Assembly: GCF_036365525.1 (NCBI RefSeq)
Contig: NC_090380.1
Location: 87,243,658-87,307,657, forward strand
Source of the DNA: Heterodontus francisci
Lineage: Eukaryota
DNA length: 64,000 bases
Direction of reading: 5' to 3'
Position numbers and translations under genes: made by a program. Of this stretch, positions 1 to 61,233 are shown piece by piece (positions within the stretch are counted from its first letter, which is position 1; the number at the start of each line of letters is the position of its first letter). Under the pieces are notes generated by a model, which had not been told where the DNA came from, made no database searches, and saw only the letters and a program-made list of their open reading frames with translations.

Positions 1-479
1 CTGACAGACACTTGAGTTTGAATACCATGTTGGTGGTAGAGTTTCCCCTCTGGTAATTGCTTTTCTTCCTTCTCTCCAGTTTTCCTTCATAACTCTTCCG
101 TTCCTAAACACTGTAACTCATACTGCAATGAAGTTCCACAGATGCCAATGGTCCTCAGGTACCTCATACAATGTCGTCATTCTACTGAGTCTAGTCAGTG
201 ATTGTATAAACTATCATATATAATCTCAATCATATCCTCACCCAACATTCACACACAAGCAATTTCAATAGGAGTAGCTGGATAGCAATCAACATTGAGG
301 AGCCTTTTTGATTTTTAATCATCTCTAGATGAGGGATGCGTAGATCAAATATAATGGCCCTAGCTCCCCCTTAACTATTCTGGGTATTATTGATTAACTC
401 AATACAGATGCAATTTTTTAAAGGTTTTCTTTTATCATCCACTAATTTTTGCCAGTAGTTTTCCATCCTGAAAGATATG

Positions 480-790
480 GTTCTATGGCCACTGGTTGTC
501 CACGTTAATATTCAAGTAACATTCTTGCCAGGATGTTTACTGGGGAAGGGGTTGGGGGGGCGGTGTGGAGGAAACCACAGTCTGCATAATCTTATTCTCA
601 GTGCCAGCAAGAGTTGCTGGATAGCAAAACCCTGAAGTAACAGGGCCAATTGCAATGTTCCTAACACAGCCCTGGCTGAAATCAGCTAACTCACACTAAT
701 CAGAGATCAAGCCTGGAACATTCCTAGTATTCATGCCTCAGTTACTCACTGAATAACTTGCTAACCCACCAGGGAGCTAAACATATAACT
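480..790 (-). repeat. Ancient degraded SINE-like repeat, family unassigned
   Basis: The motif cagctaactca(g)cac...gatcaa(a/g)cctgg at about 682-720 recurs in degenerate form at about 2830-2870, 11885-11920, 18450-18480 and 18830-18880. Confidence 0.45.
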
Positions 791-973
791 TTTATTACTT
801 TGTTATAGTTTTCCTCACAATTATAGTTTATAATCAATCAATGCACTGGGGTGGGGAGATGTGCACAATAGTCAAATTTACATCTTTTGATATATTAATG
901 CATCACAAAAATCAGTGCAGTAATAAAGATATTTCTTCTAGCCAAATCAGTACTTAAAATATTTGAAGGATCT

Positions 974-2296
974 TCAATCTTCATCCACCCACCATCTTTT
1001 TTTATGACTATCTGAAGATTTTTCTGCAACTCGATTTGAATTTAAAGTTGACTTTTGCCAACTGGCTCTCTTTTCTGGTTCATTGTTAACTGTCTTCTTG
1101 TTCTGGTGATTTTTGGTTCGACTGCAGTATCTCTGTTCTATTGGAACTGGTAAAAATCCTTCATGTTTCCTTTTTGGAACAAACTTGAGAGCCTCTTGCC
1201 AGCTACCAGTTTCTTTCACAGTCAACAAAATGCCGATCATTTGGTTCAATGTAAGGTTTTTTGCACCACTATCCCACTTCAAATACTCATCCAAAGGAAG
1301 GCGTGCAGTTGCCAACTTTAAACGCTTTGCATTTGCAAGGGACAACCCTGGCTGAATTGACTTATCAACAATCGATCCAATGATGTAGATTTTATCATCC
1401 CGAAAAGTCTTCAATATGGAAGGTGAATCTGCAGTTAAATACACAAGCTTGTCTTTGGGAAAAATGTCAACATATGACTTTTCCGTTACTGTTATCAAGA
1501 GTCTATCCCAGGCATCCCCGTAACGTTTCAAAAGCTCCTTATAATATGATCCCTCAGGGCTAAGGTTACAGAAATGTAAGTGGAATGGGTCCAAAGATCT
1601 TCTGTTATACCCCTCACACTCCAGTAGCTGAGAGACAGTGTTCTCCATTTCTCGACGGGCCATGTAGCTTTCATAGCTCATATCAAATACCAGTGGCTGA
1701 CCAAACATCATGGACTGAGCTGCCCTCCAATTGTACATTACGTCAAAAGACCGTTGCCAGAATTGTAAGAGAAAAGTATTCTTTAATGCAACTCCTTCCT
1801 CGTTTTCTTTTTCCTTCTGCAGATGCTTTGTTCCTCCTTGCTTTAATTTTTGTTTTTCCTTTTCAGCTTTCTTTTTGCCTTCTTTGATTGCTAGGTACTT
1901 AAGATATTTTTTCTTTGCAGATTTAGTGGGTAGTTCTTGAACTGTGCTCAGCTGTTCATCAGTTATGTCCTCTGGCACGGTTTTCCCAGCTAGTCGCCAC
2001 ATTTGAACCAGTTCCCTTGTAGCAGCAAGGGATGAGTTCCCAAGATCTTCAGAGGGGAGTGGTTTGGGAGCTTCAGTTGCGTTTTCTCTCATGACAGTCT
2101 TCCACATATCTAAATCTAGTTTATCAGGGCTAACTTTTTGTTCTTCATTCTTTACACAAGGCGTCAAAACCAGTGTCCTGTGATTTGGCATAAATTGGCA
2201 CCAGGCCAACAGCACTTTATTCTTCACCTGAGTCTTTACTTGTAGAGTGTAGCGTCTACTAAAGCTTTGTAAAAGATGGGGAACACGGAGCCACAT
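974..2296 (-). CDS. TRMT10C: tRNA methyltransferase 10 homolog C (MRPP1, mitochondrial RNase P subunit), single coding exon, about 440 aa
   Basis: The ORF carries Trm10/SPOUT motifs (PLVFDMSYESYM, PFHLHFCNL, LVYLTADSP, YIIGSIVDK, ARLPLDEYL, LTLNQM) and an N-terminal Lys-rich coiled coil. The track start at 2362 is TTG; the first ATG is at 2296. There is a splice acceptor (ttttatctaattacag) just upstream at 2378 and a candidate AATAAA on the minus strand at 791-796. Confidence 0.95.
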   Translation of the reverse strand: MWLRVPHLLQSFSRRYTLQVKTQVKNKVLLAWCQFMPNHRTLVLTPCVKNEEQKVSPDKLDLDMWKTVMRENATEAPKPLPSEDLGNSSLAATRELVQMWRLAGKTVPEDITDEQLSTVQELPTKSAKKKYLKYLAIKEGKKKAEKEKQKLKQGGTKHLQKEKENEEGVALKNTFLLQFWQRSFDVMYNWRAAQSMMFGQPLVFDMSYESYMARREMENTVSQLLECEGYNRRSLDPFHLHFCNLSPEGSYYKELLKRYGDAWDRLLITVTEKSYVDIFPKDKLVYLTADSPSILKTFRDDKIYIIGSIVDKSIQPGLSLANAKRLKLATARLPLDEYLKWDSGAKNLTLNQMIGILLTVKETGSWQEALKFVPKRKHEGFLPVPIEQRYCSRTKNHQNKKTVNNEPEKRASWQKSTLNSNRVAEKSSDSHKKRWWVDED

Positions 2297-3029
2297 AATT
2301 ATACTCAAAATAAAATAATTCTGAAATCTGAATAATCTCCAACAATGTTCTAATAAATCCAAGGATGATGTTTGATCCTGTAATTAGATAAAAAGTATTA
2401 GAAGAATAATGAAAGATTTTTCCAAATTAAATGTTACCAAGTTCTTGCTGAATCTGTTTGAGCTGAAACGCAGAGTTCCCAATTTTCTCAAAACCATAGA
2501 TGTACAAAACGACTGAGCACAGGAATCATTTCTTCCAAGCACACTTTTTCACCCTTCCCAATTTTCTCCATTCCTCTCTTGGAGAGACCAACTTATGCTA
2601 GAATAATGGGCACAGGATGGTAACTCATTGAAATCAGATAGTAAATGTTGACAGGCTATTCGAGCTCCAGAACCACTGAGTCTGACCCTGTTTTCACCCA
2701 ACGTCCACCCACCTGAACTTGCCAATGGGAGTCAATGGATTGCAGTTAGCTACAAGAACCCTTCGTTGATTTCCTTTTCTCCCCCGCCTACGGACATTGA
2801 ATCCAATTGTATAACTGCTGCCCATAAGCGGACTCAACACAGACTGAACAATGAACTGGATTCTGGAGGTTGTAATATGTAGGAAAGAATAGCGCGGAGA
2901 ATTTTGCGTATTCTTGTCAATTAATATTGCTGTGAAATGCTCTCCATAGATTTGCCTCGTTACACAGGCACTTCAATTTTAAAAATACAAAATAAAAAAT
3001 GGAGATCGTATATTAGGAATAAATAGAAT

Positions 3030-3718
3030 CGCGCTAACCTGTTAAAGAGATGAATGAAGTCCGGTGTTGCAAATTCGAATCTGGAACGTGCAACACAGAA
3101 CCCTGCCCGGATCTCATTCAGAGAAACTGCAGCTGCCTTCACATGGGGGAAAGGTCAACGCGGCGTGTGTCCGCCGCTTTCCAGACTCCCTGCTTTCCAC
3201 ATTCCAAATGAACAATGCACACATCAAACCATTGCAGTTTTTTTTTTAAATTGAGCACAGTTGCTCAATTGTAGTAGCTAGTTACCTACAGAATCATTTT
3301 CATGAACAACAGATATCATGAAACACAGGGCAAAGTTATCGTTTGAGTAATCTAATACTGCATGTGCCCGATTCATTTTAATTCAGATCTTTCAATTTGC
3401 AATCCTTGTTCAATCGCAAATATCTGGCAGTGTCTAATACATTATGTGCATGCTGTGTATTTTGTGATGCTGTTTATTAAACGAATATAAGTTCGTTTAG
3501 TATGGTAAACTTTGAGGAATCATTTGATCACGTTGTTAATTAAAATGTAACATTTTCTTTCATTAAAAATTAGCTTGAAGCGTGTTTCTGGGGAATTATT
3601 TCGAAGTAGTCCTAGGAGCAGAAGAATTACATCCGGTTCGTCGTTGTCCTTTCCCCGCCTATGTGAATTTTAGTTTAACTCTTTATTTCAATTAGCCTTT
3701 TCTCTTCAAGTTGAGAGA
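3030..3718. promoter_or_regulatory. Bidirectional promoter region shared by trmt10c (minus) and txnl4b (plus), including a probable non-coding trmt10c exon 1
   Basis: The genes are head-to-head. CpG-enriched patches lie at about 3030-3190 and 3600-3660. A minus-strand donor CAG/GTTAG at 3038 could splice to the acceptor at 2378. Confidence 0.6.
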
Positions 3719-16680: not shown

Positions 16681-18069
16681 TTGCTCCTACCAATTTTCTT
16701 GCCTGAGGTGCTGAGTCATGTTTGGCTACAGTTTTGTAGACCAGAGCAGCCCTTAGTACTACATCCAAATGATCATTCTTCGCTTGTAAGCTTCATGACT
16801 ATTAGCAGACAATGACAACTTACATTTACGTTGTGCCGTTAGCATAGGAAAATGTCACAAGATGCTTCATCAGACTAAAATTAGGATGGGTGACTAGTAA
16901 CTTGGTCAGAGGTAGATTTTAAGAAGAAAAAGGTGGAGAGGTTTAGGGAGGGAATTCCAGAGCTTAGGGACTAGACAACTGATGGCATGTTTGCCAATGG
17001 TAGGCCTACTTCACTTTATTATTAGACTATTTTATTAATCTAGCAGGTCCATACAATTTCAAATCAATTTTTAAAATATTTTCTGTAGGAATTTTTAGCT
17101 ATGCCGGTATTATAACAACTTTGAAATAGCTTCAGTGATTCTGGCAGAGATTTTTTGCTACCAGTGTTGGGAAAAGTGGAGAATCTGCAATCATCAGGAA
17201 GTCTTACAAATCAAAGACCCACCTTTTGAAATAGATTTGCTTTGTCTCAACTGCCAATGAATTGTTTAGATTGGATTCCGAGAAGGTGCACTTGTGCCTT
17301 TAAAATCTATTGATTGTTTAATTGTGAAAGTACTTTAAAAAAAAAAAATCTTCCTTTGTACCGATTCAAATGTCAAAGGAGAAGGAGGCATATAACCTAA
17401 TAGCCTTTGTTTCTGTGTTTTCCAACTTTGCCATTTCTCCATATGGGTCGAGAGCGAGCAGTGCACTCTCTATTGCTTCCATCTTACCAAAACCTTATGA
17501 CCACATGTTCCAATAGCTAAAATTTTAGAACTTTTTAAAATCTTGCTCTGTCTGATTAAAGTTTTTTTTTGCCTCTGTTTAATCTAACATGAATGGCCAT
17601 GTGTTTTTTTCCCCTTCAGTCAGAAAGGAGGACTATGCTAGTATCCTATGCTATTCCCGATCCAAGCACTATTGGCAAGGGGGTTTATTGTTCATCTGGA
17701 GGCCTACCATCTTAAATTCTTTATGCACAACCACTTCTGTTCAGGAGAAAGCATGTGCTGACCTATGAAAGCTGCCTTTGTGTTGTGCACAAAATAAAAT
17801 GTGTCAGAGGGAAGATGTGTTCATCTGATGTCCACCACCCTGAATTGCTCTATAGTTTTCAGGTGTGTGGTTTTCCTGTTTAATCTAGTAGCAGTGAGGA
17901 TAATTTAAGCATTACTCATTCTGCTCCTTCTAAGGTCAGGTATCTTTGTACTGATCAGGAACTGAAGCTAGAACCATCGGTATCATTCAGTTCCATTCTG
18001 CATTTGTTGACTGAACTAACTGAAACCTTAGGAATTTCTGACAAGGCAGGCTTTTATTTGTCCATTTTC

Positions 18070-18350
18070 TATCCCCAGTTTTGCTTGAGATGGTGCAGGT
18101 GATCCTTCTTGAATCGCTGCAGCCAGTGTGGGGAAGGTGCTTCCACAACGCTGTTATGTAGTATGCATCAGAATTTTGACCCAGTAACAATGAAGGTACA
18201 ACAATATATGTCCAGGTCAGGGTGGTACCTGACTTGGGGCTGACAGTATTCCAATGTATCTGCTGCCATGGTAGTGGAGATCGCAGGCTTGGGAGGTGCT
18301 GCCGAAGAAGCCTTCGTGAGTTGTTGCCTCCTAAAGATAGTATGTACTGC
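18070..18350 (-). mobile_element. Degraded 3' fragment of the tRNA-headed LINE family (see 27345-30570)
   Basis: Colinear by eye with 27410-27715 (ccttcttgaa.cgctgcag, aattttgaccc, gtcagg.tggt, tgg.aggtgctg). Confidence 0.6.
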
Positions 18351-19943: not shown

Positions 19944-21002
19944 CTACATCCTCTTCTTTTCCTTTAAGCAATTTTTCTTACTTAAACTTCTTGTAACAAT
20001 TGGCGATCGAGTGAATCGATTAGTTTTCTGCACATTTGCAACTTTCTTCAAGTACTTGAAAATTGAGTGAAAGCAAATTGTGGGGGCCAAGTCGTGGTTT
20101 TCAGTGCCTGCAGAAACCTGCGCACAGTCCATCCTTACGGAGGATACAGGCTTGTCTAGAGGTTTGGGGCTCAGTAACCAGTTACGGCATTTTTTTTCAA
20201 TCCAATTCCGACCTATTTGCCCAACGTTTTGATGGTCTGCATCATGAGCAGAGTTTATGAAGGCCACAGCATATACTTTGCTCATTACCTCCGTACGTTC
20301 ATTCAGTAGGTTGACAAATGTCAACCCGCCATAGCCATGAGCTATGAAGGCTACATTCATTGCAGTAGACTTCGATATAAAGTGGTCCCAAATGTAGATG
20401 ACGTGCTGTTCAGCACTTTCAAAACCTCTTTTTGGTATTTGTTTAAGTGTTAGGTTATATTTTTGATCAGAATCACATTGTTTTTTCTCTTCTGCGGCTG
20501 CGACATCGTCTTGCTTAATAGGCATAAAGTTGTCATTACTGTTTAATACAATCACTTCATAGTGCTCCCTTAGAGCTTTCTTAATAAAAGGGATTTGAGT
20601 GCCAGTATCCAGACAATCATGCACAATCAGTTGCTGGGACCATGTACCGGCCCGCATGACTCCACGATCTTGCAGTAGAACAATTAACTTGCAAGGATTA
20701 GTCAAGGCACCTTCGCTCATGAAGCAGAAACTTTTCGGGCCATCCTCTGCGGCCTCCAGGGGAATATAGACTCGTTTCAGTAGACATTCTTTCTCCAAGA
20801 GTTCGTATACATACTCGGCCAGAACTGTTCCAAAGACTTTGTACCATTGGTGGTTCAAGTTGGTTGCATTACTATATTGTTTGAAAACAAATGGTTGGTT
20901 TGTTTCCGTGTTCCTCAGTTGTCCTTTGTCATTGAAATAGTATTTGAATTCTTTCAGTCTTTTTGCATTTTCCAGTTGTTTAGGAATCACCGGCTCTCCC
21001 AT
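19944..21002 (-). CDS. FAM172B: FAM172/ARB2-family protein (Arb2-like alpha/beta-hydrolase fold), intronless, about 352 aa; probable FAM172B ortholog
   Basis: Motifs YYFNDKGQLR, YVYELLEK, GVMRAGTWSQQLIV..CLDTGTQIPFIK, HVIYIWDHF, AHGYGG and VSAGTENH match FAM172A as recalled. First ATG at 21002 (the track start is TTG). The position beside TRMT10C matches human FAM172BP. Confidence 0.85.
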   Translation of the reverse strand: MGEPVIPKQLENAKRLKEFKYYFNDKGQLRNTETNQPFVFKQYSNATNLNHQWYKVFGTVLAEYVYELLEKECLLKRVYIPLEAAEDGPKSFCFMSEGALTNPCKLIVLLQDRGVMRAGTWSQQLIVHDCLDTGTQIPFIKKALREHYEVIVLNSNDNFMPIKQDDVAAAEEKKQCDSDQKYNLTLKQIPKRGFESAEQHVIYIWDHFISKSTAMNVAFIAHGYGGLTFVNLLNERTEVMSKVYAVAFINSAHDADHQNVGQIGRNWIEKKCRNWLLSPKPLDKPVSSVRMDCAQVSAGTENHDLAPTICFHSIFKYLKKVANVQKTNRFTRSPIVTRSLSKKNCLKEKKRM

Positions 21003-21091
21003 TTTGAGAAAACGATACTCCAAATTAGCTCTTAAGTCAGTAGATAGCCTAAACTAATTATATTGTGCTGTTAATTTGCGATACGACTGTG

Positions 21092-27344: not shown

Positions 27345-30300
27345 TCTTTTATTTTCATTCATGGGATGTGGGCGACGCTGGCCAGGCCAGCATTTAATGC
27401 CCATCCCTAATTGCCCTCGAGAAGGTGGTGGTGAGTTGCCTTCTTGAACTGCTGCAGTCCATTTGGGGTAGGTATACCCACAGTGCTGTTAGAAAGGTAG
27501 TTCCAGGATTTTGACCCGGCGACAGTGAAGGAATGGTGATATAGTTCCAAGTCAGGATGGTGTGTGACTTGGAGGGGAACTTGCAGGTGGTGGTGTTCTC
27601 ATGTATTTGTTGCCCTTGTCCTTCTAGTTGGTAGAGGTCGCGGGTTTGGAAGGTGCTGTCTAAGGAGCCTTGGTGCATTGCTGCAGTGCATCTTGTAGAT
27701 GGTACACACTGCTGCCACTGTGCGTCGGTGGTGGAGGGAGTGAATGTTTGTAGATTGGGTGCAAATCAAGCGGGCTGCTTTGTCCTGGATGGTGTCGAGC
27801 TTCTTGAGTGCTGTTGGAGCTGCACCCATCCAGGCAAGTGGAGAGTATTCCATCACGCTCCTGACTTGTGCCTTGTAGATGGTGGGCAGGCTTTGGGGAG
27901 TCAGGAGGTGAGTTACTCGCCTCAGGATTCCTAGCCTCTGACCTGCTCTTGTAGCCACAGTATTTATATGGCTACTCCAGTTCAGTTTCTGGTCAATGGT
28001 AACCCCTAGGATGTTGATAGTGGGGGATTCAGCGATGGTAATGCTGTTGAATGTCAAGGGGAGATGGTTAGATTCTCTCTTGTTGGAGATGGTCATTGCC
28101 TGGCACTTGTGTGGCGCAAATGTTACTTGCCACTTATCAGCCCAAGCCTGGATATTGTCCAGGTCTTGCTGCATTTCTACACGGACTGCCTCAGTATCTG
28201 AGGAGTCACGGTGCTGAACATTGTGCAATCATCCGCGAACATCCCCATTTCTGACCTTATGATTGAAGGAAGGTCATTGATGAAGCCGCTGAAGATGGTT
28301 GGGCCTAGAACACTACCCTGAGGAACTTCTGCAGTGATGTTCTGGAGCTCAGGTGATTGACCTCCAACAACCACAACCATCTTCCTTTGCGCTAGGTATG
28401 ACTCCAGCCAGCGGAGGGTTTTCCCCCTGATTCCCATTGACCTCAGTTTTGCTCGGGCTCCTTGATGCCATACTCGGTCAAATGCTGCCTTGATGTCAAG
28501 GGCAGTCACTCTCACCTCACCTCTTGAGTTCAGCTGTTTTGTCCATGTTTGAACCAAGGCTGTAATGAAGTCAGGAGCTGAGTGGCCCTGGCGGAACCCA
28601 AACTGAGCGTCACTGAGCTGGTTATTGCTAAGCAAGTGCTGCTTGATGGCATTGTTGATGACACCTTCCATCACTTTACTGATGATTGAGAGTAGGCTGA
28701 TGGGGCGGTAATTGGCCGGGTTGGAATTGTCCTGCTTTTTGTGTACAGGATATACCTGGACAATTTTCCACATTGCAGGGTAGATGCCAGTGTTGTAGCT
28801 GTACTGGAACAGCTTGGCTAGGGGCGCGGCAAGTTCTGGAGCACAGGTCTTCAGTACTATTGCCGGAATATTGTCAGGGCCTATAGCTTTTGCAGTGTCC
28901 AGTGCCTTCATTCGTTTCTTAATATCACGCGGAGTGAATCGAATTGGCTGAAGTCTGGCATCTGTGATGCTGGGGACTTCAGGAGGAGGCTGAGATGGAT
29001 CATCAACTTGGCACTTCTGGCTGAAGATTGTGGCCAATGCTTCAGTCTTATCTTTCGCACTGATGTGCTGGGCTCCCCCATCATTGAGGATGGGGATATT
29101 TGTGGAGCCACCTCCTCCAGTTAGTTGTTTAATTGTCCACCACCATTCACGGCTGGATGTGGCAGGACTGCAGAGCTTAGATCTGATCCGTTGGTTATGG
29201 GATCGCTTAGCTCTGTCTATTGCATGCTGCTTATGCAGTTTGGCACGCAGATAGTCCTGTGTTGTAGCTTCACCATGTTGACACCTCATTTTGAGGTATG
29301 CCTGGTGCTGCTTCTGGCATGCCCTCCTGCACTCTTCATTGAACCAGGGTTGGTCTCCTGGCTTGATGGTAATGGTAGAGTGGGGGATATGCTGGGCCAT
29401 GAGGTTACAGATTGTGGTTGAGTACAATTCTGCTGCTGCTGATGGCTCACAGCGCCTCATGGATGCCTAGTTTTGCATTGCTAGATCTGTTCAAAATCTA
29501 TCCCATTTAGCACGGTGATAGTGCCACACAACCCGAAGGAGGGTATCCTCAATGTAAAGGCGGGACTTCGTCTCCACAAGGACTGTGCGGTGGTCACTCC
29601 TACCAATACAGTCATGGTCAGAAGCATCTGCAGCAGGCAGATTGGTGAGGATGAGGTCAAGTATGTTTTTCCCTTGTGTTGGTTCCTCCACCACCTGCCG
29701 CAGACCCAGTCTAGCAGCTCTGTCCTATAGGACTCGGCCAGCTCGGTCAGTAGTGGTGCTACCGAGCCACTCTTGGTGATGGACATTGAAGTCCCCCACC
29801 CAGAGTACATTTTGTGCCTTTGCCACCCTCGGTGCTTCCTCCAAGTGGTGTTCAACATGGAGGAGTACTGACTCATCAGCTGAGGGAGGGCAGTAAGTGG
29901 TAATCAGTAGGAGGTTACCTTGCCCATATTTGACCTGATTTCATGAGACTTCATGGGGTCCGGAGTCGATTGTTGAGGACTCCCAGGGCAACTCCCTCCC
30001 TACTGTATACTGCTGGGTCTGTCCTGCTGGTGGGACAGGACATACCCAGGGATAGTGATTGCAGTGTCTGGGACATTGTCTGTAAGGTATGATTCCGTGA
30101 GTATGATTGTCAGGTTGTTGCTTGACTAGTCTGTGGGACAAGCCCCCAGATGTTAGTAAGGAGGACTTTGCAGGGTCGACAGGGCTGGGTTTGCCGTTGT
30201 CGTTTCCGGTGCGTAGATCGATGCCGGGTGGTCTGTCCGGTTTCATTCCTTTTTATTAACTTTGTAGCGGTTAGGTACAACTGAGTGGCTTGCTAGGCCA

Positions 30301-30570
30301 TTTCAGAGGGCATTTAAGAGTCAACCACATTGCTGTGGGTCTGGAGTCACATGTAGGCCAGACCAGGTAAGGACAGCAGATTTCCTTCCCTCGAGGACAT
30401 TAGTGAACCAGATGGGTTTTTACAACAATCGACAATGGTTTCATGGCCATCATTAGACTAGCTTTTAATTCCAGATTTATTAATTAAATTCAAATTCCAC
30501 CTTCTGCTGTGGTGGGATTCAAACCCATGTCCCCAGAGAAATACCCTGGGTCTCTGGGTTACTAGTCCAA
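27345..30570 (-). mobile_element. Near full-length single-ORF APE-RT LINE (CR1/L2 supergroup, clade unassigned) with a tRNA-derived 5' head
   Basis: APE remnants (KVLLTNIWGL, QQPD, NILDLILTN, SDHRTV) and RT motifs ([34 protein letters not shown]) across ORFs 29941-30246, 29491-29694, 28177-29460 and 27599-28228. B-box-like GGTTTGAATCC on minus at 30515-30525. Confidence 0.9.
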
Positions 30571-30753: not shown

Positions 30754-31100
30754 GGGCGGCGCAGTGGTTAGCACTGCAGCCTCACAACTCCAGCGACCCG
30801 GGTTCGATTCTGGGTACTGCCTGTGCGGAGTTTGCAAGTTCTCCCTGTGACTGCGTGGGTTTTTGCCGGGTGCTCCGGTTTCCTCCCACAGCCAAAGACT
30901 TGCAGGTTGATGAGTAAATTGGCCATTATAAATTGCCCCGAGTATAGGTAGGTGGTAGGGGAATGTCGGGACAAGTGGGGATGTGGTCGGAATATGGGAT
31001 TAGTGTAGGATTAGTATAAATGGGTGGTTGATGGTCGGCACAGACTCGGTGGGCCGAAGGCCCTGTTTCCGTGCTGTATCTCTAAATAAATAAAATAAAT
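30754..31100 (+). mobile_element. HE1-like V-SINE, full length
   Basis: A-box ggcgcagtgg, B-box ggttcgattc, V domain and CR1-like tail (taaa)n. Same family as 14232-14570. Confidence 0.9.
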
Positions 31101-31796: not shown

Positions 31797-34700
31797 TAAT
31801 ATTACTTGTTCTTTTGGTATGTGGACTATTGTAAGAGTCACAGGTACACAAAGCTACTGCAGGAGCCAAACCAACACACACCTCACTCTGTCAGGCTACA
31901 CCCACAACTCCCTGGTCGTGTGTGATGCAACATCGCTTCCTCCAGCGACCTTCACTTACACACAACAACCCCCATTTTTCCAAAGATAAAAACATATGTA
32001 TAATAAAACATTATTTACAAATAAGCAAGTTTAACACTCTCTAAAACGTAGAGGAGGATTGCTTATTTGTCCCAATCTTGTTGTTTTAAACCTCTTCCCA
32101 GAGCTGAGTTTGTCTTTTCGATTTCTTTGACTGTGGCGACTTGGAACTCTGGTTAGCATGTTCTTCCTCTGTGCTCATAGCCTCTGTATGTTCATCTTCA
32201 GGCTTTGTCTTTGAACGTGTCCATGATGCCACAGGGTGGTCACATGTTGTGTTGTACAGCTTTCTGAGCTGACTTCGGTTCCGTCTGAGATTCGCACCAT
32301 TGAGTGTCTGGACCTCGTACAATCTGGGTTGGTCGCATATCCTAGAAACCTCTGCAGGATACCAAGTTCCCAACCTTCTGTCCCACTTGCAATTGAACTA
32401 CTTTTGGTCCTGTTTGCCTGTCATACAATGCCTTCATCTTCCCTTGCTCAGAAAGCTCAGAGAAATGATGACTGGCAACATCACCGGCAGTCCCTCTGGC
32501 CTCCATGTACTTACTGCAACGGACTGAAGCCCAAGGAGAGACTACTGGTCATGTCGTCTCTTCGTTTCAAGATGCCCAGCATTTGTATCCTTTACATGGA
32601 CTGACCCAATATACTTGATCTGGATATTTTCTACTATATTTGATGCATTACTGACGACTTGTGGGGAGGTGGTGGCATAGTGGTAATGTTGCTATATGAG
32701 TAATCCAGAGGTCCAGGCTAATGTCCTGGGGACACTGGTTCAAATCCCACCATGGCAGCTGGTGGAATTTAATTTCAGTTAAATAATTCAATTAATTAAT
32801 CTGGAATTGAAAGCTGTTCTTAGTTTCATGGTGCCATTACTATCATTGATTGTCGTAAAAACCCATTTGGTTTACTAATGACCCTTGGGGAAGGAAATCT
32901 GCCATCCTTAACTATGCTGGTTTACATGTTACTCCAGACCCACATCAATGTGGTTGACTCTGAACAGCCCTCGGGTGTCAAGGGCAATTAGGCAACAAAT
33001 GCTGGCCTTGCCAGCGCCACCCACATCGCGTGAAAGAATAAAAAAAAATTGTGACGATTCGTAAATCTTGGCATACTGGAAGTCTTATGACAGCTGGTCC
33101 AGTTGTGTCTACAATATAAAACATTCATGGTATTCATCTGGAGCTCCCATAGCTGCACTGCAAGGATATCATTCCAATGCACTTGATTGGAGAACCATTG
33201 ATGGCAGTCAGCCTAAATGTGGTGGGGTCATACCATAGATTCCCATTTCCTTAAGTACATGTCCTTCAGTATGTGGATGGGCAGAATATTTGCACTTGTT
33301 CTGGTGGTTTGAGCTTATGCTTTCCACTCTTTTGCAGATATATAGTCATGATCGTGGCAAATGCCTCAGATTGCATAATAGCATTGACGTTGATCCAAAT
33401 TAACAATGTGAAATGCTTGCTTGCTCTTCGCATTAGTGCATTCTTCACCTGTGTTCTCCTGACAATCTGTCTCTTTGCTGACCTGATGTACCTGCTTGGG
33501 CTTTTGTTCTGTATTAGCATACCTTTTGTTGCATTTGCTATTCTGTCTTGCAGATGTTCTCTGCCAGCATTCCTGTGTGCAGTATCTGAGCTCAGCCTTC
33601 TGCACTGCCTTCCTAATGTCCTTGCATGCCACAAGCTTTGCACTGGCCCTGGTACGCCAGACAACTGCGAATTGGGTGAGTCAGGCCACATTTGCCAGCA
33701 GGCCTAGCAGACTTCTGACCCTTGGTTACCATACCAATTGTTGTAGCCACCTCCAACACTTGTAACTGTTGGCACCCAGCCATGATGGCTTCAGATTTCC
33801 TTCCATCACTGAGTAGTGCATCTATGATATGCCCTTTCTCCTTTTCTAGCAGGTCTTTTTGAAAGGCCTCTATTGGAGTAGATGCGATTACTGGCTCTAT
33901 TACCCGCCCCAGCAATTCATTATCTGCAAAGTCGCATTCTTGAGCTTTGTCTCGGCACCTTCCAACAAACTGGTCAATGGACTCATCTTGCCTTTGCCAG
34001 TAGGTCATCAGCTCAAGCCTCAGCAATTGACCATCACCTTGAGTTGCTGCTTCAGGAATGTCCATAGCTTGCTTGGGTCAGCTGACAATCCTGATGTGTT
34101 GATCTGTTCTAGGCCCTTGTTGCCCAGTCCGATATTGATTTTTGATAGCTTATTTATTTGGTTCGCTCACTTCTTGATCTAGGAAACACTTCCATCTGTT
34201 GTTGAAACAATTTAAATTGAGATGCTGTGGATTCTTGAATACCATATTCTGGATGATCCTGCTGTTATATAAATATGGGGCTTTTTACAGTTACAGCTTT
34301 GTTTCCTTTTTTTTCTGGCCTGCCCCTTTTAAGAGTGAGCCTACAGCTGCCTTTGTTTACACTGCTTGTTATTTTTTAAACTGAGGGAGCAGTTCTTTGT
34401 TTAAAAGCTTTTTTTTTTAAAACTGAGAACAGGTTATTTTAAGAGGTCTGCAGCTTGTAGTACCAGCAGCTGCCACGGTCAGCCTTTTACTTTGCTAGAC
34501 CTCTAGTGGTGCTGTTGAGCACTTCCCTCTCTTTTCAGCTTAGGCCCTGCCCACTAAGCAAAAAAACTAGGAAAACTAAAGCAGTAATGGCTGTACTACT
34601 GCTTTACAAATTGTTCGACCCACTGCTAGATTAGGTGAAAGCTCCAATCTCCTGGAAAGTTTCCTACTGTACTCAACACCTCTTGGTCCTGTCTGTGGTC

Positions 34701-41776: not shown

Positions 41777-44700
41777 TTAGAATTAGAACATTACAGCGCA
41801 GTACAGGCCCTTCGGCCCTCGATGTTGCGCCGACCTGTGAAACCATCTGACCTACACTATTCCATTTTCATCCATATGTCTATCCAATGACCACTTAAAT
41901 GCCCTTAAAGTTGGCGAGTCTACTACTGCTGCAGGCAGGGCGTTCCACGCCCCTACTACTCTGCGTAAAGAAACTACCTCTGACATCTGTCCTATATCTT
42001 TCACCCCTCAACTTAAAGCTATGTCCCCTCGTGTTTGCCATCCTCATCCGAGGAAAAAGACTCTCACTATCCACCCTATCTAACCCTCTGATTATCTTGT
42101 ATGTCTCTATTAAGTCACCTCTCTTCCTCCTTCTCTCTAACGAAAACAACCCCAAGTCCCTCAGCCTTTCCTCGTAAGACCTTCCTTCCATACCAGGCAA
42201 CATCCTAGTAAATCTCCTCTGCACCCTTTCCAAAGCTTCCACATCCTTCCTATAATGCGGTGACCAGAACTGCACGCAATACTCAAGGTGCGGCCTCACC
42301 AGAGTTTTGTACAGCTGCATCATGACCTCGTGGCTCCGAAACTCGATCCCCCTACTAATAAAAGCTAACACACCATATGCCTTCTTAACAGCCCTATTTA
42401 CCTGGGTAGCAACTTTCAGGGATTTATGCACCTGGACACCAAGATCTCTCTGCTCATCTACACTACCAAGAATCTTCCCATTAGCCCAGTACTCTGCATT
42501 GCTGTTACTCCTTCCAAAGTGAATCACCTCACACTTCTCCGCATTAAACTCCATTTGCCATCTCTCAGCCCAGCTCTGCAGCCTATCTATGTCCCTCTGT
42601 ACCCTACAACATCCTTCGGCACTATCCACAACTCCACTGACCTTAGTGTCATCCGCAAATTTACTAACCCACCCTTCTACACCCTCTTCCAGGTCATTTA
42701 TAAAAATGACAAACAGCAGTGGCCCCAAAACAGATCCTTGCGGTACACCACTAGTAACTAAACTCCAGGATGAACATTTGCCATCAACCACCACCCTCTG
42801 TCTTCTTTCAGCTAGCCAATTTCTGATCCAAAGCTCTAAATCACCTTCAACCCCATACTTCCGTATTTTCTGCAATAGCCTACCGTGGGGAACCTTATCA
42901 AACGCCTTACTGAAATCCATATACACCACATCCACTGCTTTACCCTCATCCACCTGTTTGGTCACCTTCTCGAAAAACTCAATAAGGTTTGTGAGGCACG
43001 ACCTACCCGTCACAAAACCGTGCTGACTATCGCTAATGAACTTATTCTTTTCAAGATGATTATAAATCCTGTCTCTTATAACCTTTTCCAACATTTTACC
43101 CACAACCGAAGTAAGGCTCACAGGTCTATAATTACCAGGGCTGTCTCTACTCCCCTTCTTGAACAAGGGGACAACATTTGCTATCCTCCAGTCTTCCGGC
43201 ACTATTCCTGTCGACAATGACGACATAAAGATCAAGGACAAAGGCTCTCCCTTTAGATCCTTCCTGGCTAGCTTGTAACTCTCAAGCGCCCTAACTGAAC
43301 CTTCACGTCTTATCCTAACTTCTTCCTCTTGACAAGCGCTTCAACTTCTTTGGTAAACCACGGCTCCCTCGCTCGACAACTTCCTCCCTGCCTGACAGGT
43401 ACATACTTATCAAGGACACGCAGTAGCTGCTCCTTGAATAAGCTCCACATTTCGATTGTTCCCATCCCCTGCAGTTTCCTTCCCCATCCTACGCATCCTA
43501 AATCTTGCCTAATCGCATCATAATTTTCTTTCCCCCAGCTATAATTCTTGCCCTGCGGTATATACCTGTCCCTGCCCATCGCTAAGGTAAACCTAACCGA
43601 ATTGTGATCACTATCACCAAAGTGCTCACCTACATCTAAATCTAACACCTGGCCGGGTTCATTACCCAGTACCAAATCCAGTGTGGCATCGCCCCTGGTT
43701 GGCCTGTCTACATACTGTCAGAAAACCCTCCTGCACACACTGGACAAAAACTGACCCATCTAAAGTACTCGAACTATAGTATTTCCAGTCAATATTTGGA
43801 AAGTTAAAGTCCCCCATAACAACTACCCTGTTACTCTCGCCCCTGTCGAGAATCATCTTCGCTATCCTTTCCTCTACATCTCTGGAACTATTCGGAGGTC
43901 TATAAAAGACTCCCAACAGGGTGACCTCAGCTCTCCTGTTTCTAACCTCGGCCCATACTACCTCAGTAGACGAGTCCTCAAACGTCCTTTCTGTCGCTGT
44001 AATACTCTCCTTGATTAACAATGCCACACCACCCCCCCCTCTTTTACCATCTTCTCTGTTCTTACTGAAACATCTAAATCCCGGAACCCGCAACATCCAT
44101 TCCTGTCCCTGCTCTACCCATGTCTCCGAAATGGCCACTACATCGAGATCCCAGGTACCAACCCATGCTGCAAGCTCACCCACCTTATTCCGGATGCTCC
44201 TGGCGTTGAAGTAGACACACTTTAAACCAGGTTCTTGCTTGCCAGTGCCCTCTTGTGTCCTTGTAACCTTATCCCTGACCTCACTACTCTCAACATCCTG
44301 TACACTGGAACTACAATTTAGGTTCCCATTCCCCTGCTGAATTAGTTTAAACCCCCCCCCCCCCCCCCCCCGAAGAGCACTAGCAAATCTCACCCCCCCA
44401 GGATATTGGTACCCCTCTGGTTCAGGTGAAGACCATCCTGTTTGTAGAGGTCCCACCTACCCCAGAAAGAGCCCCAATTATCCAGGAAACCAAAACCCTC
44501 CCTCCTGCACCATCCCTGCAGCCACGTGTTCAACTCCTCTCTCTCCCTATTCCTCGCTTCGCTATCGCGTGGCACGGGCAACAACCCAGAGGTAACAACT
44601 CTCTTTGTTCTCGCTCTAAGCTTCCACCCTAGCTCCCTGAATTTCTGTCTTAAATCCCCATCTCTCTTCCTACCTATGTCGTTGGTGCCTATGTGGACCA

Positions 44701-45600
44701 CGACTTGGGGCTGCTCCCCCTCCCCCCTAAGGATCCCAGAAACACGATCCGAGACATCACGAACCCTGGCACCTGGGAGGCAACACACCTCGTTCCCACA
44801 GAACCTCCTATCTGTTCCCCTAACTATGGAGTCCCCAATGACTAATGCTCGGCTCCTCTTCCCCCTTCCCTTCTGAGCAACAGGGACAGACTCTGTGCCA
44901 GATACCTGTACCCCATTGCTTACCCCTGGTAAGTCGTCCCCCGCAACAGTATCCAAAACGGTATACCTGTTGGTGAGGGAAACTGCCACAGGGGATCCCT
45001 GCACTGCCTGCTGGTTCCCCCTCCTTCCCCTGACGGTAACCCATCTACCTACTTCTTTTACCTGAGGTGTGACTACCTCCCCATAACTCCTCTCAATAAC
45101 CCCCTCTGCCTCCCGAATGATCCGAAGTTCCTCCAGCTCCAGTTCCCTAACGCGGTTCTCGAGGAGCTGGAGTTGGGTGCACTTCCCGCAGATGCAGTCA
45201 GCAGGGACACTCTTGGCGACCCTTACCTCCCACATTCTGCAGGAGGAACATACAACTGCCTTAACTTCCATTCCCACTATTCTAAATTCCCAACAAATCT
45301 ACTGAAAAACCAAAAAAAAAAAGTCAAAACTTGTTAGGTTAGCAATCCAACGGACAGAACTTTTTAAATAAAAAGCTTACCTTATCAACACACCAGAGTC
45401 CTTTTTTTTGGTTAGAGGAGGAGGGTGGGTGGGAGACACTACATGTGTAGTGTCTCGGGTACAGCCACCACCCAAGTATATAGTTTTTACTTACCCAGCA
45501 GTCCCCTGGTCCTCCGAAAACAAAAGGGAATTAACTTTTAACTTACACTGAAATTGACTTCCCAGCTGCAAGTTCGCTCCGCACCTCCGCTACTGTCAAA
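41777..45600 (-). mobile_element. Near full-length young CR1 LINE: ORF1 (Zn finger, coiled coil, SGNH esterase) and ORF2 (APE-RT) with frameshifts and an internal deletion near 43250
   Basis: ORF1 44390-45277 (CSSC..CICGKC, GDS, VHIGTND, DGLHLN). APE at 43310-44456 (YFNARSI, ISETW, YRPP, GDFN, SDHN). RT at 41895-43241. (ttctaa)n tail. Confidence 0.95.
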
Positions 45601-48900: not shown

Positions 48901-51697
48901 CGTCACTCTTGGCTGACATACGTTGTCCAGGCCTCGCTGCCGTAGAGCAAGGTACTGAGGACACCGGCTTGATAAGCTCGGACTTTTGTGTTCTGTGTCA
49001 CTGCGCCCTTTTCCCATACCCTCTTGGCCAGTCTGAACAGAGCAGTGGAAGCCTTTCCCATGTGCTTGTATATTTCTGCATCGAGAGAGAGGTTACTGGT
49101 GATAGTTGAGCCTAGGTAGGTGAACTCTTGAACCACTTCCAGAGTGTGGTCGCCGATATAGATGGATGGAGCATTTCTGATGTCCTGTCCCATGATCGTT
49201 TTCTTGATGCTGATGGTTAGGCCAAATTCGTAGCAGGCAGCTGCAATCCTGTCGATGAGTCTCTGCAGACGCTCTTCAGTGTAAGATGTTAATGCAGCAT
49301 CGTCCGCAAAGAGGAGTTCCCTGATGAGGACTTTCCGTCCTTTGGCCTTTGCTCTTGTATGCCTTTCATATTGTCATGGAATGAGGTGATGATACTTAGT
49401 AGCTTTGGTGGACATCCGATCTTTGCTAGTAGTCTGAAGAGACCACGTCTGCTGACGAGGTCAAAGGCTTTGGTGAGATCAATGAAAGCAACGTAGAGGG
49501 GCATCTGTTGTTCACGGCATTTCTCCTGTAGTTGGTGAAGGAAGAACAGCATGTCAGTGGTGGATCTCTCTGCTCGAAAGTAACACAGTGCCTCAGGGTA
49601 GACACGCTCAGCTAGCTTCTGGAGCCTGTTCAAAGCGACTTGAGCGAAGACTTTCCCCACTATGCTGAGCAGGGAAATTCCACGGTAGTTAAGGATAACG
49701 TAAAGACAAAAACTAAGGCATGCCATATTGCAAACGCCAGTGGCAGGCTGGAAGATTGGGAAACTTTTTTAAAGATCAACAAAGGGTTACTAAAAAAAGT
49801 AATAAAAAGAGAAGAGGTAAATTATGAAAGAAAACTAGCGCAAAATATAAAAACGGAAAGCAAAAGCTTCTGTAGTTATATAAAAGGGAAGAGAGTAGCT
49901 AAAGTGAATGTTGCTCCCTTGGAGGATGAGACTGGGGAGTTAATAGAGGGGAACACAGAAATGGCGGAGACACTAAATCAGTGTTTTGCCTCAGTTTTCA
50001 CAGTGGAAGACATTAGTACCATCCCAATAGTAACAGGTAATGCAGACGTTATAGAAAGGGAGGAACTTGGAACAATCATCATCACTAGAGGAAAAAGTGC
50101 TGATCAAACAATTGGGATTGAAGGCCGACAAGTCCCCAGGGCCTGATGGCCTACATCCTAGGGTCTCAAAGGAAGTGGCAGCGGAGATAGTGGATCCATT
50201 GGTTATAATATTCCAAAATTCCCTAGATGCTGGGAAGGTTGCAGTGGATTGGAAAAAAGCTAATATAATGCCCTTATTCAAAAAGGGAGGCAGAAAGTAG
50301 GAAACTGTAGACCAGTTAGTTTAACATCTGTAGTTGGGAAATTGTTAGAATCCATTATTAAGGAAGTAATAACAGGACATTTAGAAAGTCAAAATGCAAT
50401 CCATCAGAGTCAGCATGGTTTTATGAAGGGTAAATTGTGTTTGACTAATTTGCTAGAGCTCTTCGAAGATGTAACAAGTAAAGTAGATAATGGGGATCCT
50501 GTAGATATAGTATATCTGGTCTTCCAGAAGACATTTGATAAGGTGCCGCATAAAAGGTTAATACACAAAGTAAGGTCACATGGGGTTAAGGGCAATTTAT
50601 TAGCTTGGATAGAGGATTGGCTAACCAACAGAAAAGAGAGAGTTGGGATAAATGGGTCAATTTCTGGTTGGCAAGATGTAACTAATGGGGTGCCACAGGG
50701 TTCGGTCCTCAGGGGCCCAACTATTTACAGTCTATATTAATGACTTGGATGCAGGGATAGAAGGTACTATAGCCAAATTTGCAGATGACACTAAAATAGG
50801 TGGGATAGTAAGTTGCAGTAAAGAAATAAGAAATTTACAAATGGATATGGATACGTTAGGTGAATGGGCCAAAATTTGGCAGATGGAGTTCAACGTGGAT
50901 AAGTGAGGTTATCCATTTTGGTCGGAAGAATAGAAAGGCAATTATTATCTAAATGGAGAGAAACTTCAGAGTGCTTCGTTTCAGAGGGATCTGGGTGTCC
51001 TCGTGCTTGAATCGCAGTAAACCAGTATGCAGGTGCAGCAGGTAATAAGGAACGTAAATGGAATTTTGTCAATTATTGCTAAAGGAATAGAGTATAAAGG
51101 TAGGGAAGTGTTGCAACTTTACAAGGCATTGGTGAGACCGCACCTGGACTATCGCGTACGGTTTTGGTCCCCTTACCTGAGGAGGGATGTAGTTGCATTG
51201 GAGGCAGTTTAGAGGAGGTTCATTAGATTAATTCAAGAGATGAGGGGTTTGTCTTGTGAAGAGAGTTTGAGCAGTTTAGGCCTTTACTCTCTCTCGAGTT
51301 TATAAGAATGAGAGTAGATCTAATTGAGGTACATAAGATGATTAAGGGGACTGACAAAGTAGACGTAGAGAGGATGTTTCCTCTGGTGGGGCAATCTAGA
51401 ACGGGAGGTCATAGTTTTAGGATAAGGGGTAGCAGATTTAAAACAGCGATGAGGAGAAAGCACGTCTCTCAAAGGGTCATGAGCCTGTGGAATTCCCTAC
51501 CCCAGAGTGCAGTGGATGCCGGGACACAGTAAATTTAAGGAGGAGATAGACAGATTTTTAATTAGTGATGGGTTATGGAAAATGGGCAGGAAAGTGGAGT
51601 TGAGGCCGAGATGAGAACAGCCATGATCGTATTGAATGGCGGAGCAGCCTGGAGGGGCTGAACTGCCTACTCCTGCTCCTAGTTTTTATATTCTTAT
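45930..51697 (+). mobile_element. Full-length degraded CR1 LINE interrupted by an RTE insertion
   Basis: ORF1 remnants at 46340-47240 (Cys knuckle, VVIGDSIVRG, VHIGTNN, DELHLN). APE 47665-48168 and RT 50067-51532. 3' tail cctactcctgctcctagtttttatattcttatg. Confidence 0.92.
48320..49686 (-). mobile_element. RTE-clade (BovB-like) LINE, 5'-truncated and internally deleted
   Basis: NYRGISLLSIVGK, AFIDLTKAFDLVSR, FTYLGS, LLYGSEAW, RLRWLGHVSRM, C-terminal CSTCGRVCHSRIDLYSH finger and (GAA)n tail. Junction duplication agtt at 48316-48319 and 49687-49690. Central RT is missing at about 49355. Confidence 0.9.
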
Positions 51698-52794
51698 GTG
51701 TGTGAGAAGGAGCCAAGCTCAATCATTGCATTTGCACTCAGCTGCAAGGAATACAAGAACGTTGTAGAAGATCTTGGACGAGAATCTGTGATGAATGGGA
51801 GTGACGATGGAGTACAACAGCCAAATAATGCGGACAGACCAAAGACCAATAGCCTTGCAAGGCACTTGGAAAGCTGCAGCAGTCAAGGAAATCGCAGCAG
51901 TGATTCTGAACAAACATATGATGGTGATGGAGACAAACAGAAGAAACATCTTGGAAACCCACATGTGGAACTACAGTTTTCAGACGCCAATGCCAAGTTT
52001 TACTGTCGAATTTATTACGCTGAAGAATTCCACAAAATGAGGGAAGTGATCTTGGCAAACAATGAAGATGACTTCATCCGATCTCTATCTCACTGTGTGC
52101 CATGGCAAGCCCGAGGAGGCAAATCAGGAGCATCTTTTTATGCTACAGAAGATGACCGCTTTATTCTGATGCAGATGCCTCGTTTGGAAGTACAGTCATT
52201 CCTGGATTTTGCTCCTCATTATTTTAATTATATTACAACTGCCGTTCAGAAAAGACCGACAGCATTGGCAAAAATTCTGGGAGTATATCGAATAGGCTAC
52301 AAAAACTCTCAGAACAATACAGAGAAGAAACTTGATCTTTTGGTTATGGAGAATCTCTTTTATGGGAGAAAAATGGCGCAAGTTTTTGATTTGAAAGGTT
52401 CTTTAAGGAATCGAAATGTTCAAACTGAAACGGGAAAAGAGACATGTGATGTTGTATTACTGGATGGAAACCTATTGAAAATGATTCGCGATAACCCTCT
52501 TTACATTCAGTCACACTGCAAGGCTGTGCTGCGGGCATCCATTCATAGTGATGCATATTTTCTGTCAAGCCATCTCTTCATTGACTATTCCCTACTTGTG
52601 GGCCGAGATGACATTAAAAATGAATTGGTTGTTGGAATTATCGATTGATATCAGGACATTTACTTGGGATAAAAAACTTGAAATGGCTGTAAAGTCTACG
52701 GGAATCTTAGGTGGGCAAGGGAAAATGCCAACTGTGGTTCCCCCAGAACTTTTATAGAACGAGGTTTTGTGAAGCAATGGACAAGTACTTCCTG
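51698..52794 (+). pseudogene. PIKFYVE: Processed PIKFYVE fragment covering the C-terminal PIPK kinase domain
   Basis: Intronless CEKEPSSIIAFALS...ARGGKSGA...FDLKGSLRNR...IDYSLLVG...GIID/IRTFTWDKKLE...YRTRFCEAMDKYFL. Frameshifts at about 52647 and 52752. The catalytic Lys codon appears as ATG at 52169-52171. Confidence 0.92.
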
Positions 52795-58749: not shown

Positions 58750-59050
58750 CTTGAGAGGGCACTTAAGAATCAGCCACATTGCTGTGGGTTTGGAGTCACA
58801 TATAGGCCAGATCTGGTAAGGATGGCAGGTTTCCTTCCCTGAAGGACATTAGTGAACCAGATGGGTTTTTACAATAATCTATAGTTTCATTGCACCATTA
58901 CTGAGACTAGCTTTCAATTCCAGACTTTTATTAATTAATTGAATTTAAATTCCAGCAGCTTCCGTGGTGGCCTTTGAACCTGTGTCCCCAGGGCATTAGC
59001 ATGGACATTGAATTACTAGTCCAGTGATATTACCATTACGCTACTGTCTC
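58750..59050 (-). mobile_element. Second copy of the SINE/head of the tRNA-headed LINE family
   Basis: Colinear with 30305-30570 (ccacattgctgtggg..tggagtcac, ggacattagtgaaccagatgggtttttacaa, ttactagtcca). A-box-like tagcgtaatgg on minus. Confidence 0.85.
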
Positions 59051-60210: not shown

Positions 60211-61233
60211 CAGTAGCATAGTGGTAATGTTACTGGATTAGTAACTGGACTCGAAGCTGGGACTAATGCTCCGGAGAGACAAGTTCATATCCTACCATGG
60301 TAACTGGGGATCTTAAATTTAATTAATAAATCTGGAATAAACAGCTCGTCTCAGTAATGATTATGAAACTACCATGTTGTTGTAAAACACACTTGGTTCA
60401 CTAATCTCCTTCAGTGAAAGAATTCTGCTGTCCTAACCCGGTGTGGCTGTTGTCACTCTAGACCCGCAGCAACGTGGTTGACTCTTAACTGTCCTCTGAA
60501 ATTGCCTAGCATGCCACTCCAGTTATGTCAAACCGCTACACAAGTCAAATAAGAATAAAACCAGATGGACCACTAGGCACCAGAAATGACACAGGCACAC
60601 CTTTCCCAGTCGACCCTGCAACGTCCTCCTCACTAACATCTCTGGACTTGTGCCAAAATCTGTCCCACAGACTCGTCAAGCAACAGCCTGACATAGTCAT
60701 ACTCACGGAATCAAACCTACAGCCAATGTCCCAGACTCCTCCATCACCAGAGGTGGCGGCACAGTGATCTGCAGGTGAGAGGCAGTGGCCCAGGGAGTCC
60801 TCAATATTGACTCTGGACCCCATGAAGTTTTGTGGCATCAGGTCAAACATGGGCAAGGAATCCTTCTGATTACCACCTACTATCCTCCCTCAGCTGATCA
60901 GTCAGTGCTCCTCCATGATGAACACTAGTTAAAAGAAGCACTGAGGGTAGCAAGGACACAGAATGGAATCTGGGTGGCGACTTCAGTGTCCGTCACCGAG
61001 TGTCTTGGTAGCACCACTACTGACCGGGCTCCGAAGGACATATCTACTGGGCTGGGCCTGTGGCAGGTAGTGAGAGAACCAACAGGAAAAACCTACTTGA
61101 CCTCGTCCTTACCACCGACCTGTCGCAATGCATTTCTCCATGACAGTATTGGTAAGAGTGATCACTCCTTGTGGAAACAAAGTCTCGTCGTCTGATTGAG
61201 AACACCCTACATAGTGTAGTATGGCACTACACT
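60211..61233 (+). mobile_element. 5' part of a second tRNA-headed LINE copy (head plus APE domain)
   Basis: A-box TAGCATAGTGG (60214-60224) and B-box-like AGTTCATATCC (60282-60292), then the shared body, then LSHRLVKQQPDIVILTES and later APE remnants. Truncated by a CR1 at about 61235. Confidence 0.85.

Follow-up and report, generated by a model that had tools for sequence, protein, structure and literature searches.

The window (the whole 64,000-nt stretch of Heterodontus francisci DNA that we analyzed) contains a near-full-length LINE copy on its minus strand, running from 30570 to 27347, together with further copies related to it and several other frames and repeats (Table 1). As the initial annotation had it, this is an APE-RT element: the Pfam family RVT_1 was found in the copy itself at window positions 28177-29463 (E 1e-30), and L035, a better-preserved sister copy, has the endonuclease families PF14529/PF03372 in its 5' frame. 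The same annotation placed a tRNA-like head with a B-box within a few hundred bases of the APE-RT start. The spacing stands, with the endonuclease motif beginning at 30172, ~400 nt from the 5' end, and the open frame reaching back to 30292, ~280 nt from it; of the head, only a remnant survives here. Its A-box was lost to 5' truncation, its B-box (30525-30515) reads GGTTTGAATCC and is altered at a core position, and Rfam returned no match on this copy. Four deletions (20, 2, 17, and 4 nt), one inserted nucleotide, and stops disrupt the frame. Given the missing A-box, the damaged B-box, and the broken frame, our case rests on the family, Zenon, rather than on this copy, which is 96% identical to the family column majority across nt 31-3288. 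Inspection of the flanks placed its insertion site in the tail of an element that we take to be of CR1 type.

Table 1. Features of the 64,000-nt window, with the parts of the main Zenon copy listed beneath it (family nt, numbering of the family column majority)
Feature	Position	Strand	Remarks
Zenon LINE, main copy	27347..30570	-	near-full-length, dead; young subfamily; 5'-truncated by ~30 nt
tRNA-like head remnant of main copy	30504..30570	-	family nt 30-96: anticodon-like stem, long variable stem, T-arm
Conserved 150-nt body of main copy	30277..30429	-	family nt 171-323; common to SINE-like partner; candidate initiation element
APE-RT single frame of main copy	27407..30292	-	basic leader; 975 codons in family, broken here; no in-frame AUG until codon 285
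3' tail of main copy	27347..27420	-	ORF end, 3' UTR, short A-tail; common to SINE-like partner
Older-subfamily copy	60211..61229	+	3'-truncated; shares head, body, and APE start; A-box at 60214-60224; B-box at 60282-60292, with one change
SINE-like partner copy	32663..33048	+	head and body joined straight to last ~75 nt of LINE; A-box 32673-32683, B-box 32737-32747
Head and body only copy	58751..59049	-	no ORF or tail detected
Old 3' fragment	18064..18327	-	same or related LINE; 67% identity
Further tRNA-headed SINE	30754..31100	+	within same CR1 remnant as main Zenon copy; presumably V-SINE/HE1-like
Canonical CR1	41895..45298	-	esterase ORF1
Unbroken 469-codon frame	974..2383	-	tRNA m1G methyltransferase domain; host gene or young retrocopy; presumably TRMT10C-like
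Intronless 369-codon frame	19944..21053	-	Arb2 domain; candidate retrogene; presumably FAM172A-like
Intronless frame	51683..52648	+	PIP5K domain; probably processed copy; presumably PIKfyve-like

The second copy that had been reported at the far end of the window does share the head, with A-box and B-box, joined to the same APE start, and it belongs to an older subfamily and is 3'-truncated. Its A-box reads TAGCATAGTGG, and it is 74-75% identical to the main copy over ~990 aligned nt. Two ORF-less head copies, those starting at 32663 and 58751, were absent from the initial annotation. Many genomic copies of the canonical CR1 in the window are 99% identical and some retain open frames of 965 codons, and that CR1 has thus been active very recently.

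By its sequence, the element is an elasmobranch Zenon LINE of the CR1 group, having a single ORF with APE and RT, no ORF1, and a poly-A tail. Zenon elements occur in sharks and rays, and every one is described as lacking ORF1 and carrying a poly-A tail in the relevant passages of Stuart et al. 2026 (PMC13343379). The lack of ORF1 singled out in the initial annotation is confirmed, although it is unsurprising, being an ordinary property of Zenon in that account. An 11-nt motif from the body matches seven elasmobranch Zenon rows and one unrelated row of supplementary table 2 of the same paper, the seven coming from white shark, whale shark, catshark, dogfish, and stingray. Compared by eye over the first 400 letters, CarCar_, RhiTyp_, ScyCan_, SquAca_, and HypSab_Zenon carry the same head, body, and leader as our element, and they resemble it in length (2.9-3.3 kb), in having no ORF1, and in their poly-A tails. 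The hagfish and coelacanth Zenon rows differ, in that their first 400 letters do not open with the element's head.

In a protein tree (FastTree), the element fell within a 30-row clade (support 100) alongside amphioxus, crab, and metagenome proteins, in a set that included no named Zenon protein, and apart from canonical CR1, including the CR1s of the window. Among 80 metagenome loci, L242 alone belongs to the same clade. This sole same-clade relative with DNA carries 20 T4 runs, its 950-nt 5' region is of non-tRNA type, and its frame has an early Met. Relaxed ARAGORN matches in the metagenome loci were scattered, and we did not accept them as heads; the viral contigs scanned held no relatives.

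We searched the shark's own 6.0-Gb genome with the head and ORF start as query, which gave 40 scored places, 39 of which were fetched. Twenty-four of these 39 copies align in one piece from head to tail and differ from the column majority by 3.2%. That majority is 3,298 nt long with a single open frame of 975 codons (nt 308-3232), and the unit of ~3.3 kb consists of a head (nt 1-96), an AT-rich spacer, the conserved body (nt 171-323), one APE-RT frame, and an A-tail. The A-tails are short and are preceded by an AATAAA-like stretch, and no second tail was found beyond the LINE end. Across four arbitrary 100-kb stretches plus the window, matches to the family cover 29.0 of 464 kb, or ~6%.

So that the head would not be selected for, we examined 5' ends using the endonuclease region alone as query. 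With the DNA query, 22 of 29 copies (own copy excluded) reach nt 1-12, and with the protein query 20 of 29 do so; pooled, 42 of 58 copies reach nt 1-12 of one tRNA-Leu-like head. The common end is sharp and lies 10 nt before the A-box. The other 16 copies end at scattered points against unrelated flanks, and no alternative shared 5' UTR or ORF1 was present among the 58. Each search took the best-scoring 30 of thousands of candidates, and the copies in this test are accordingly young. The head-ORF junction is single in all copies of both subfamilies, which upholds the earlier claim that the fusion is a family trait. The initial annotation also suggested testing for target site duplications (TSDs) that flank head and tail. 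Such duplications, 7-8 nt long, enclose head and tail in 4 of 28 copies, where mismatched pairs would give 0.3; in two of the four they overlap with the A-tail, and 15 of the 28 copies show none; TSDs are short or absent here and an irregular feature.

These observations bear on whether the head could be a separate SINE, either nested by chance or inserted at a preferred, fixed target within the LINE. Among the bodies in 400 kb of arbitrary DNA, six were tail-joined, three were ORF-linked, and two were assigned to neither, so the free short element equals or exceeds the ORF-linked form in number, in keeping with that reading. However, the one junction across all copies and both subfamilies, the lack of a second tail past the LINE end, the bracketing duplications, the unrelated flanks of 5'-truncated copies, and the presence of the same head in the consensus sequences of five species (PMC13343379, as tabulated there) refute a separate nested SINE, and we give this reading scarcely any weight. 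Our results support instead a single, family-wide retroposing unit formed by the head and the ORF together.

The short, SINE-like partner of ~400 nt consists of LINE nt 1-~323 followed by the last ~75 nt, the tail. All of the top 30 matches to the copy at 32663 have this structure, although eleven of them, with near-identical flanks, are duplicates of one locus on a single chromosome, a multi-copy segmental duplication at G000:C8:114-124 Mb (L107-L129). Partner junctions are mostly of one kind, with others joining 354 to 3138 and 322 to 3176, and this variation implies that the internal deletion recurs. Partner sequences group together (support 88) in a tree built from nt 1-320; the tree is unrooted and does not orient the history. 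The partner may descend from a SINE that was fused onto the LINE, or it may be a deletion product of a LINE that had captured a tRNA. Assembled RNA contigs from four runs, which carry no start, strand, cap, or polymerase information, span the whole element as well as a 322-to-3187 joint.

Several sequence comparisons indicate that the head at the 5' end of the LINE, which bears the A and B boxes, derives from a tRNA. ARAGORN called 10 of 24 heads as tRNA genes, 91 nt long with a long variable stem, and Rfam gave a weak tRNA-clan match on the full head (19.8 bits, E 0.28). Compared with this genome's tRNA genes in a set limited to four isotypes (Leu, Thr, Lys, and Ile, with Ser, Gln, and Tyr outside it), the head was closest to tRNA-Leu (z 8.4-9.0), followed by Thr (6.1), Lys (3.9), and Ile (2.4). 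We set aside ARAGORN's label of an AGT "tRNA-Thr", which mirrors the loop letters only; sequence similarity prefers Leu among the four isotypes. This genome also holds, at G000:C34:18.73-19.00 Mb (L233-L241), a tandem array in which a unit of 3,050 bp is repeated ~80 times; in both units checked there is a tRNA-Leu and a tRNA-Ile gene, and the anticodon is TAG or CAG while the body is otherwise the same.

Using the A/B-box consensus for matching, we located the A-box at family nt 11-21 and the B-box at nt 75-85, and 38 of 48 young copies fit the A-box pattern and 37 of 48 the B-box pattern. Box differences among the young, old, and partner majorities are confined to degenerate positions, while the head as a whole has diverged by 19% between the young and old subfamilies. 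The consensus agrees with motifs quoted in PMC10886601, as excerpted. Folding on the alignment of head and body found few compensatory pairs (8 of 78) and showed no IRES or pseudoknot in this region.

If these boxes drive transcription, the rest of the element should bear the mark of the polymerase that reads it. Pol III terminates at T-runs of the sense strand, and thus a 3.3-kb RNA made by Pol III must be without them. On its sense strand, the young majority has zero T4 runs in 3,278 nt, compared to 14 runs of at least four A, 12 of C, and 8 of G. From composition, 4.6 T4 runs would be expected against none observed, and 22.5 T3 runs against 8; runs of A, C, and G come close to their expected numbers or exceed them, so the deficit is limited to T on the sense strand. 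The old subfamily is similar over 2.1 kb (T4, 0 versus 2.8 expected; T3, 4 versus 13.8 expected), and the pattern was repeated in three natural near-intact copies.

We then held the protein fixed and drew synonymous codons at the element's own fourfold-site frequencies. Zenon had an observed-to-expected ratio of 0.17 for T3 and 0 for T4. Ratios in 51 other LINE frames (those of at least 500 codons, out of 80 metagenome loci) ranged from 0.74 to 1.35 for T3 and from 0.45 to 1.56 for T4, and no frame was T4-free. Within the same genome, an RTE of similar T content gave 0.80 and 0.61, and CR1 gave 1.08 and 0.87. The T4 deficit taken by itself is non-significant (dinucleotide shuffle, P=0.14; own-codon shuffle, the strictest null, P=0.08). 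Both shuffles absorb part of the T-run effect, 2 of the 51 control frames have an own-codon z-score as low as Zenon's, and the mixed-age majority from a random sample contains one T4. The bulk of the signal is avoidance of TTT and TT, and TTT falls short of the textbook length of a vertebrate Pol III terminator. We also considered a built-in terminator in the 3' tail, given the stretches of 4-6 T in 10 of 43 LINE-type tails, and rejected it, as these tails are unclustered on the tree and a T-run followed by an A-run is common genome-wide. In a sample of 400 kb (L162-L199), that order was 3.6 times commoner than the reverse (91 versus 25). A-tails in this genome appear to drift to TTTTAAAA.

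Read from sequence in this way, the strand-specific loss of T-runs gives Pol III use good indirect support in the form of a clear compositional signature. In a competing account, the head would be the relic of a captured SINE or tRNA, or would serve only to shield the 5' end as an RNA structure, with Pol II transcribing the element from the body or by read-through, and the T-run deficit would have another cause, such as avoidance of U-rich decay, splicing, or 3'-processing signals, or mutational bias. The body is much more conserved than the head (3.3% versus 19% divergence) and could be a Pol II promoter, an AATAAA-like stretch lies ahead of the A-tail, and the weakness of the T4 deficit under the strictest nulls fits this account. 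LINE promoters are also usually internal Pol II promoters, as stated in the passages of PMC5786205 used here. On the other hand, CR1 and RTE reside in the same nuclei without such a deficit, which in Zenon is restricted to T and to the sense strand; the box cores have been retained while the remaining head drifts; and the 5' end falls 10 nt ahead of the A-box. We consider this account unlikely, and the upstream AUGs described next weigh further against it.

Transcription by Pol III from the tRNA head would yield an RNA with an unusual reading frame. The first in-frame AUG of the 975-codon frame is at codon 285, past the endonuclease. Ten AUGs lie upstream of the endonuclease motif, none of which opens into it: six are in other frames, and the stop at nt 305-307 closes the remaining four. 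Together they would defeat the cap-dependent scanning that a Pol II messenger implies. The frame is under purifying selection between the young and old subfamilies, with 52 synonymous versus 23 replacement changes in 515 codons, and both subfamilies were thus autonomous, as the initial annotation had proposed for the element. The basic leader has 0 synonymous and 4 replacement changes, with CpG sites excluded. Divergence between the subfamilies is 5.6% in the ORF, and the low value for the body applies to the ~150 nt ahead of the frame.

Predicted proteins of most relatives have a Met start near a similar basic leader. We rejected the out-of-frame AUG at nt 354, which opens a 46-codon frame overlapping the endonuclease, as the start. 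It is present in 48 of 48 young copies, but it reads ATA in 14 of 23 older copies (a set chosen by likeness to a copy carrying ATA) and hence is not essential. Alternatively, ribosomes that started at an in-frame AUG may read through the stop at nt 305-307; the spacing this requires fits the young and old subfamilies and three published rows, but not, by eye, those of dogfish and whale shark. For LINEs generally, initiation of the IRES type at non-AUG codons has been proposed (PMC3894237, in part).

We propose, with a probability of roughly 0.64, that the Zenon LINE is transcribed by Pol III from its tRNA head and that the same RNA is translated in cis without a cap or an AUG. TFIIIC would bind the A and B boxes, and Pol III would start at nt 1 and read through the T-run-free body of the element into the flank. 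The uncapped RNA would recruit ribosomes via the conserved body, with a non-AUG start codon somewhere between ~nt 308 and 428, and the protein would use target-primed reverse transcription, at the tail, to copy the RNA that encodes it, and would mobilize the short partner as well. An uncapped Pol III messenger would need what is seen here: a head gained, T-runs and the AUG lost, and a conserved block upstream.

RNA made by Pol III lacks a cap and is a poor substrate for translation, and no AUG start is on offer here, two facts that leave room for a division of labor. Pol III would make the RNA that is copied, and the protein would come from Pol II read-through of intragenic copies, making Zenon in effect a 3.3-kb SINE with its own helper gene. 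In its favor, 39% of Zenon-like copies in the whale shark are intronic (bioRxiv 10.1101/443036, as excerpted). Even so, purifying selection on the frame is most easily explained if the copied RNA makes its own protein, and non-AUG initiation would be needed for a read-through RNA too, and we find this arrangement decidedly improbable. Pol III transcription as such, with this variant counted in, strikes us as quite probable.

The cis reading, in which one Pol III RNA is both template and messenger, would have broader consequences. The usual rule assigns LINEs to Pol II and reserves Pol III for short, non-coding SINEs. If our proposal is true, a LINE making up ~6% of a 6-Gb vertebrate genome and driven by a tRNA promoter breaks the rule of Pol II for LINEs, a translated RNA of 3 kb can be a natural product of Pol III, and the body points to a compact, cap-independent initiation element. 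Pol III use would be unusual for an autonomous retrotransposon, and internal deletion of its own LINE would offer a route to a SINE in one step. The fullest form of the proposal is that elasmobranch Zenon is an autonomous coding retrotransposon whose 3.3-kb messenger is made by Pol III and translated free of cap and AUG via a conserved RNA element, and so a natural vertebrate Pol III protein gene and a living LINE-SINE link kept across sharks and rays; we hold the chances of this to be about even.

The Zenon family is known, and its tRNA promoter head is apparently undescribed. We found no description of a tRNA head on Zenon in the literature outside Repbase, Dfam, subscription journals, and the Zenodo files of PMC13343379. 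In the text of that paper, the word "tRNA" occurs 0 times across the main text and supplement, the head being printed as sequence and left unremarked, and its passages on these elements do not discuss T-runs, an AUG-less start, or a short partner. New here are the absence of T4 runs and the depletion of TTT on the sense strand, and the 975-codon frame with an AUG-less start behind a conserved 150-nt block.

Known systems resemble Zenon in part. Invertebrate Zenon with its derivative Persaeus likewise pairs a single-ORF LINE of the CR1 group with a bipartite 5'-plus-3' non-autonomous element; the lepidopteran Persaeus, however, lacks both homology to tRNA and a Pol III promoter in the account excerpted from PMC6740152. 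Several tRNA-headed SINEs of cartilaginous fishes are comparable to the partner, namely HE1 (V-SINE), SacSINE1 (Deu), the CmiSINEs (CORE), and UCON3_CM. The described shark SINEs pair with other LINEs (HER1, L2-2_CM). We also rejected the UCON3 body as a match, since three motifs of the body are missing from the supplement of the UCON3 paper and the UCON3 domain is unlike this body. Bov-tA, AfroSINE, and CoeSINE4 are built like the short partner, from a tRNA head, LINE 5' sequence, and a LINE tail; in those systems the head sits on a non-coding LINE derivative and the autonomous LINE is headless, whereas here the coding LINE bears the head (PMC5786205, in the passages used). The same passages state that SINEs cannot encode a protein, and they offer an anatomical precedent in RTE-1_DAn and related elements, an autonomous LINE of another clade reported with a tRNA-like sequence, the likeness resting on mention of that part without its position or function. 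In the SINE2 class, elements have a tRNA head with A/B boxes and no internal sense-strand terminator, both of which we find in Zenon; they are also short and non-coding, which is true of the ~400-nt partner only and not of a 3.3-kb LINE with a selected frame. Pol III retroelements, according to the parts of Kojima 2024 (PMC10886601) drawn on here, are short and non-autonomous, at 100-1,263 bp, a size attributed to low processivity, and this counts against a 3.3-kb RNA from Pol III. The TRIMp3 elements Cassandra, Helenus, and Ajax in the same source are non-SINE retrotransposons with a Pol III promoter derived from a small RNA, as we propose for Zenon, although they are LTR-type, non-coding, and 311-1,263 bp long, whereas Zenon is a 3.3-kb LINE with a coding frame.
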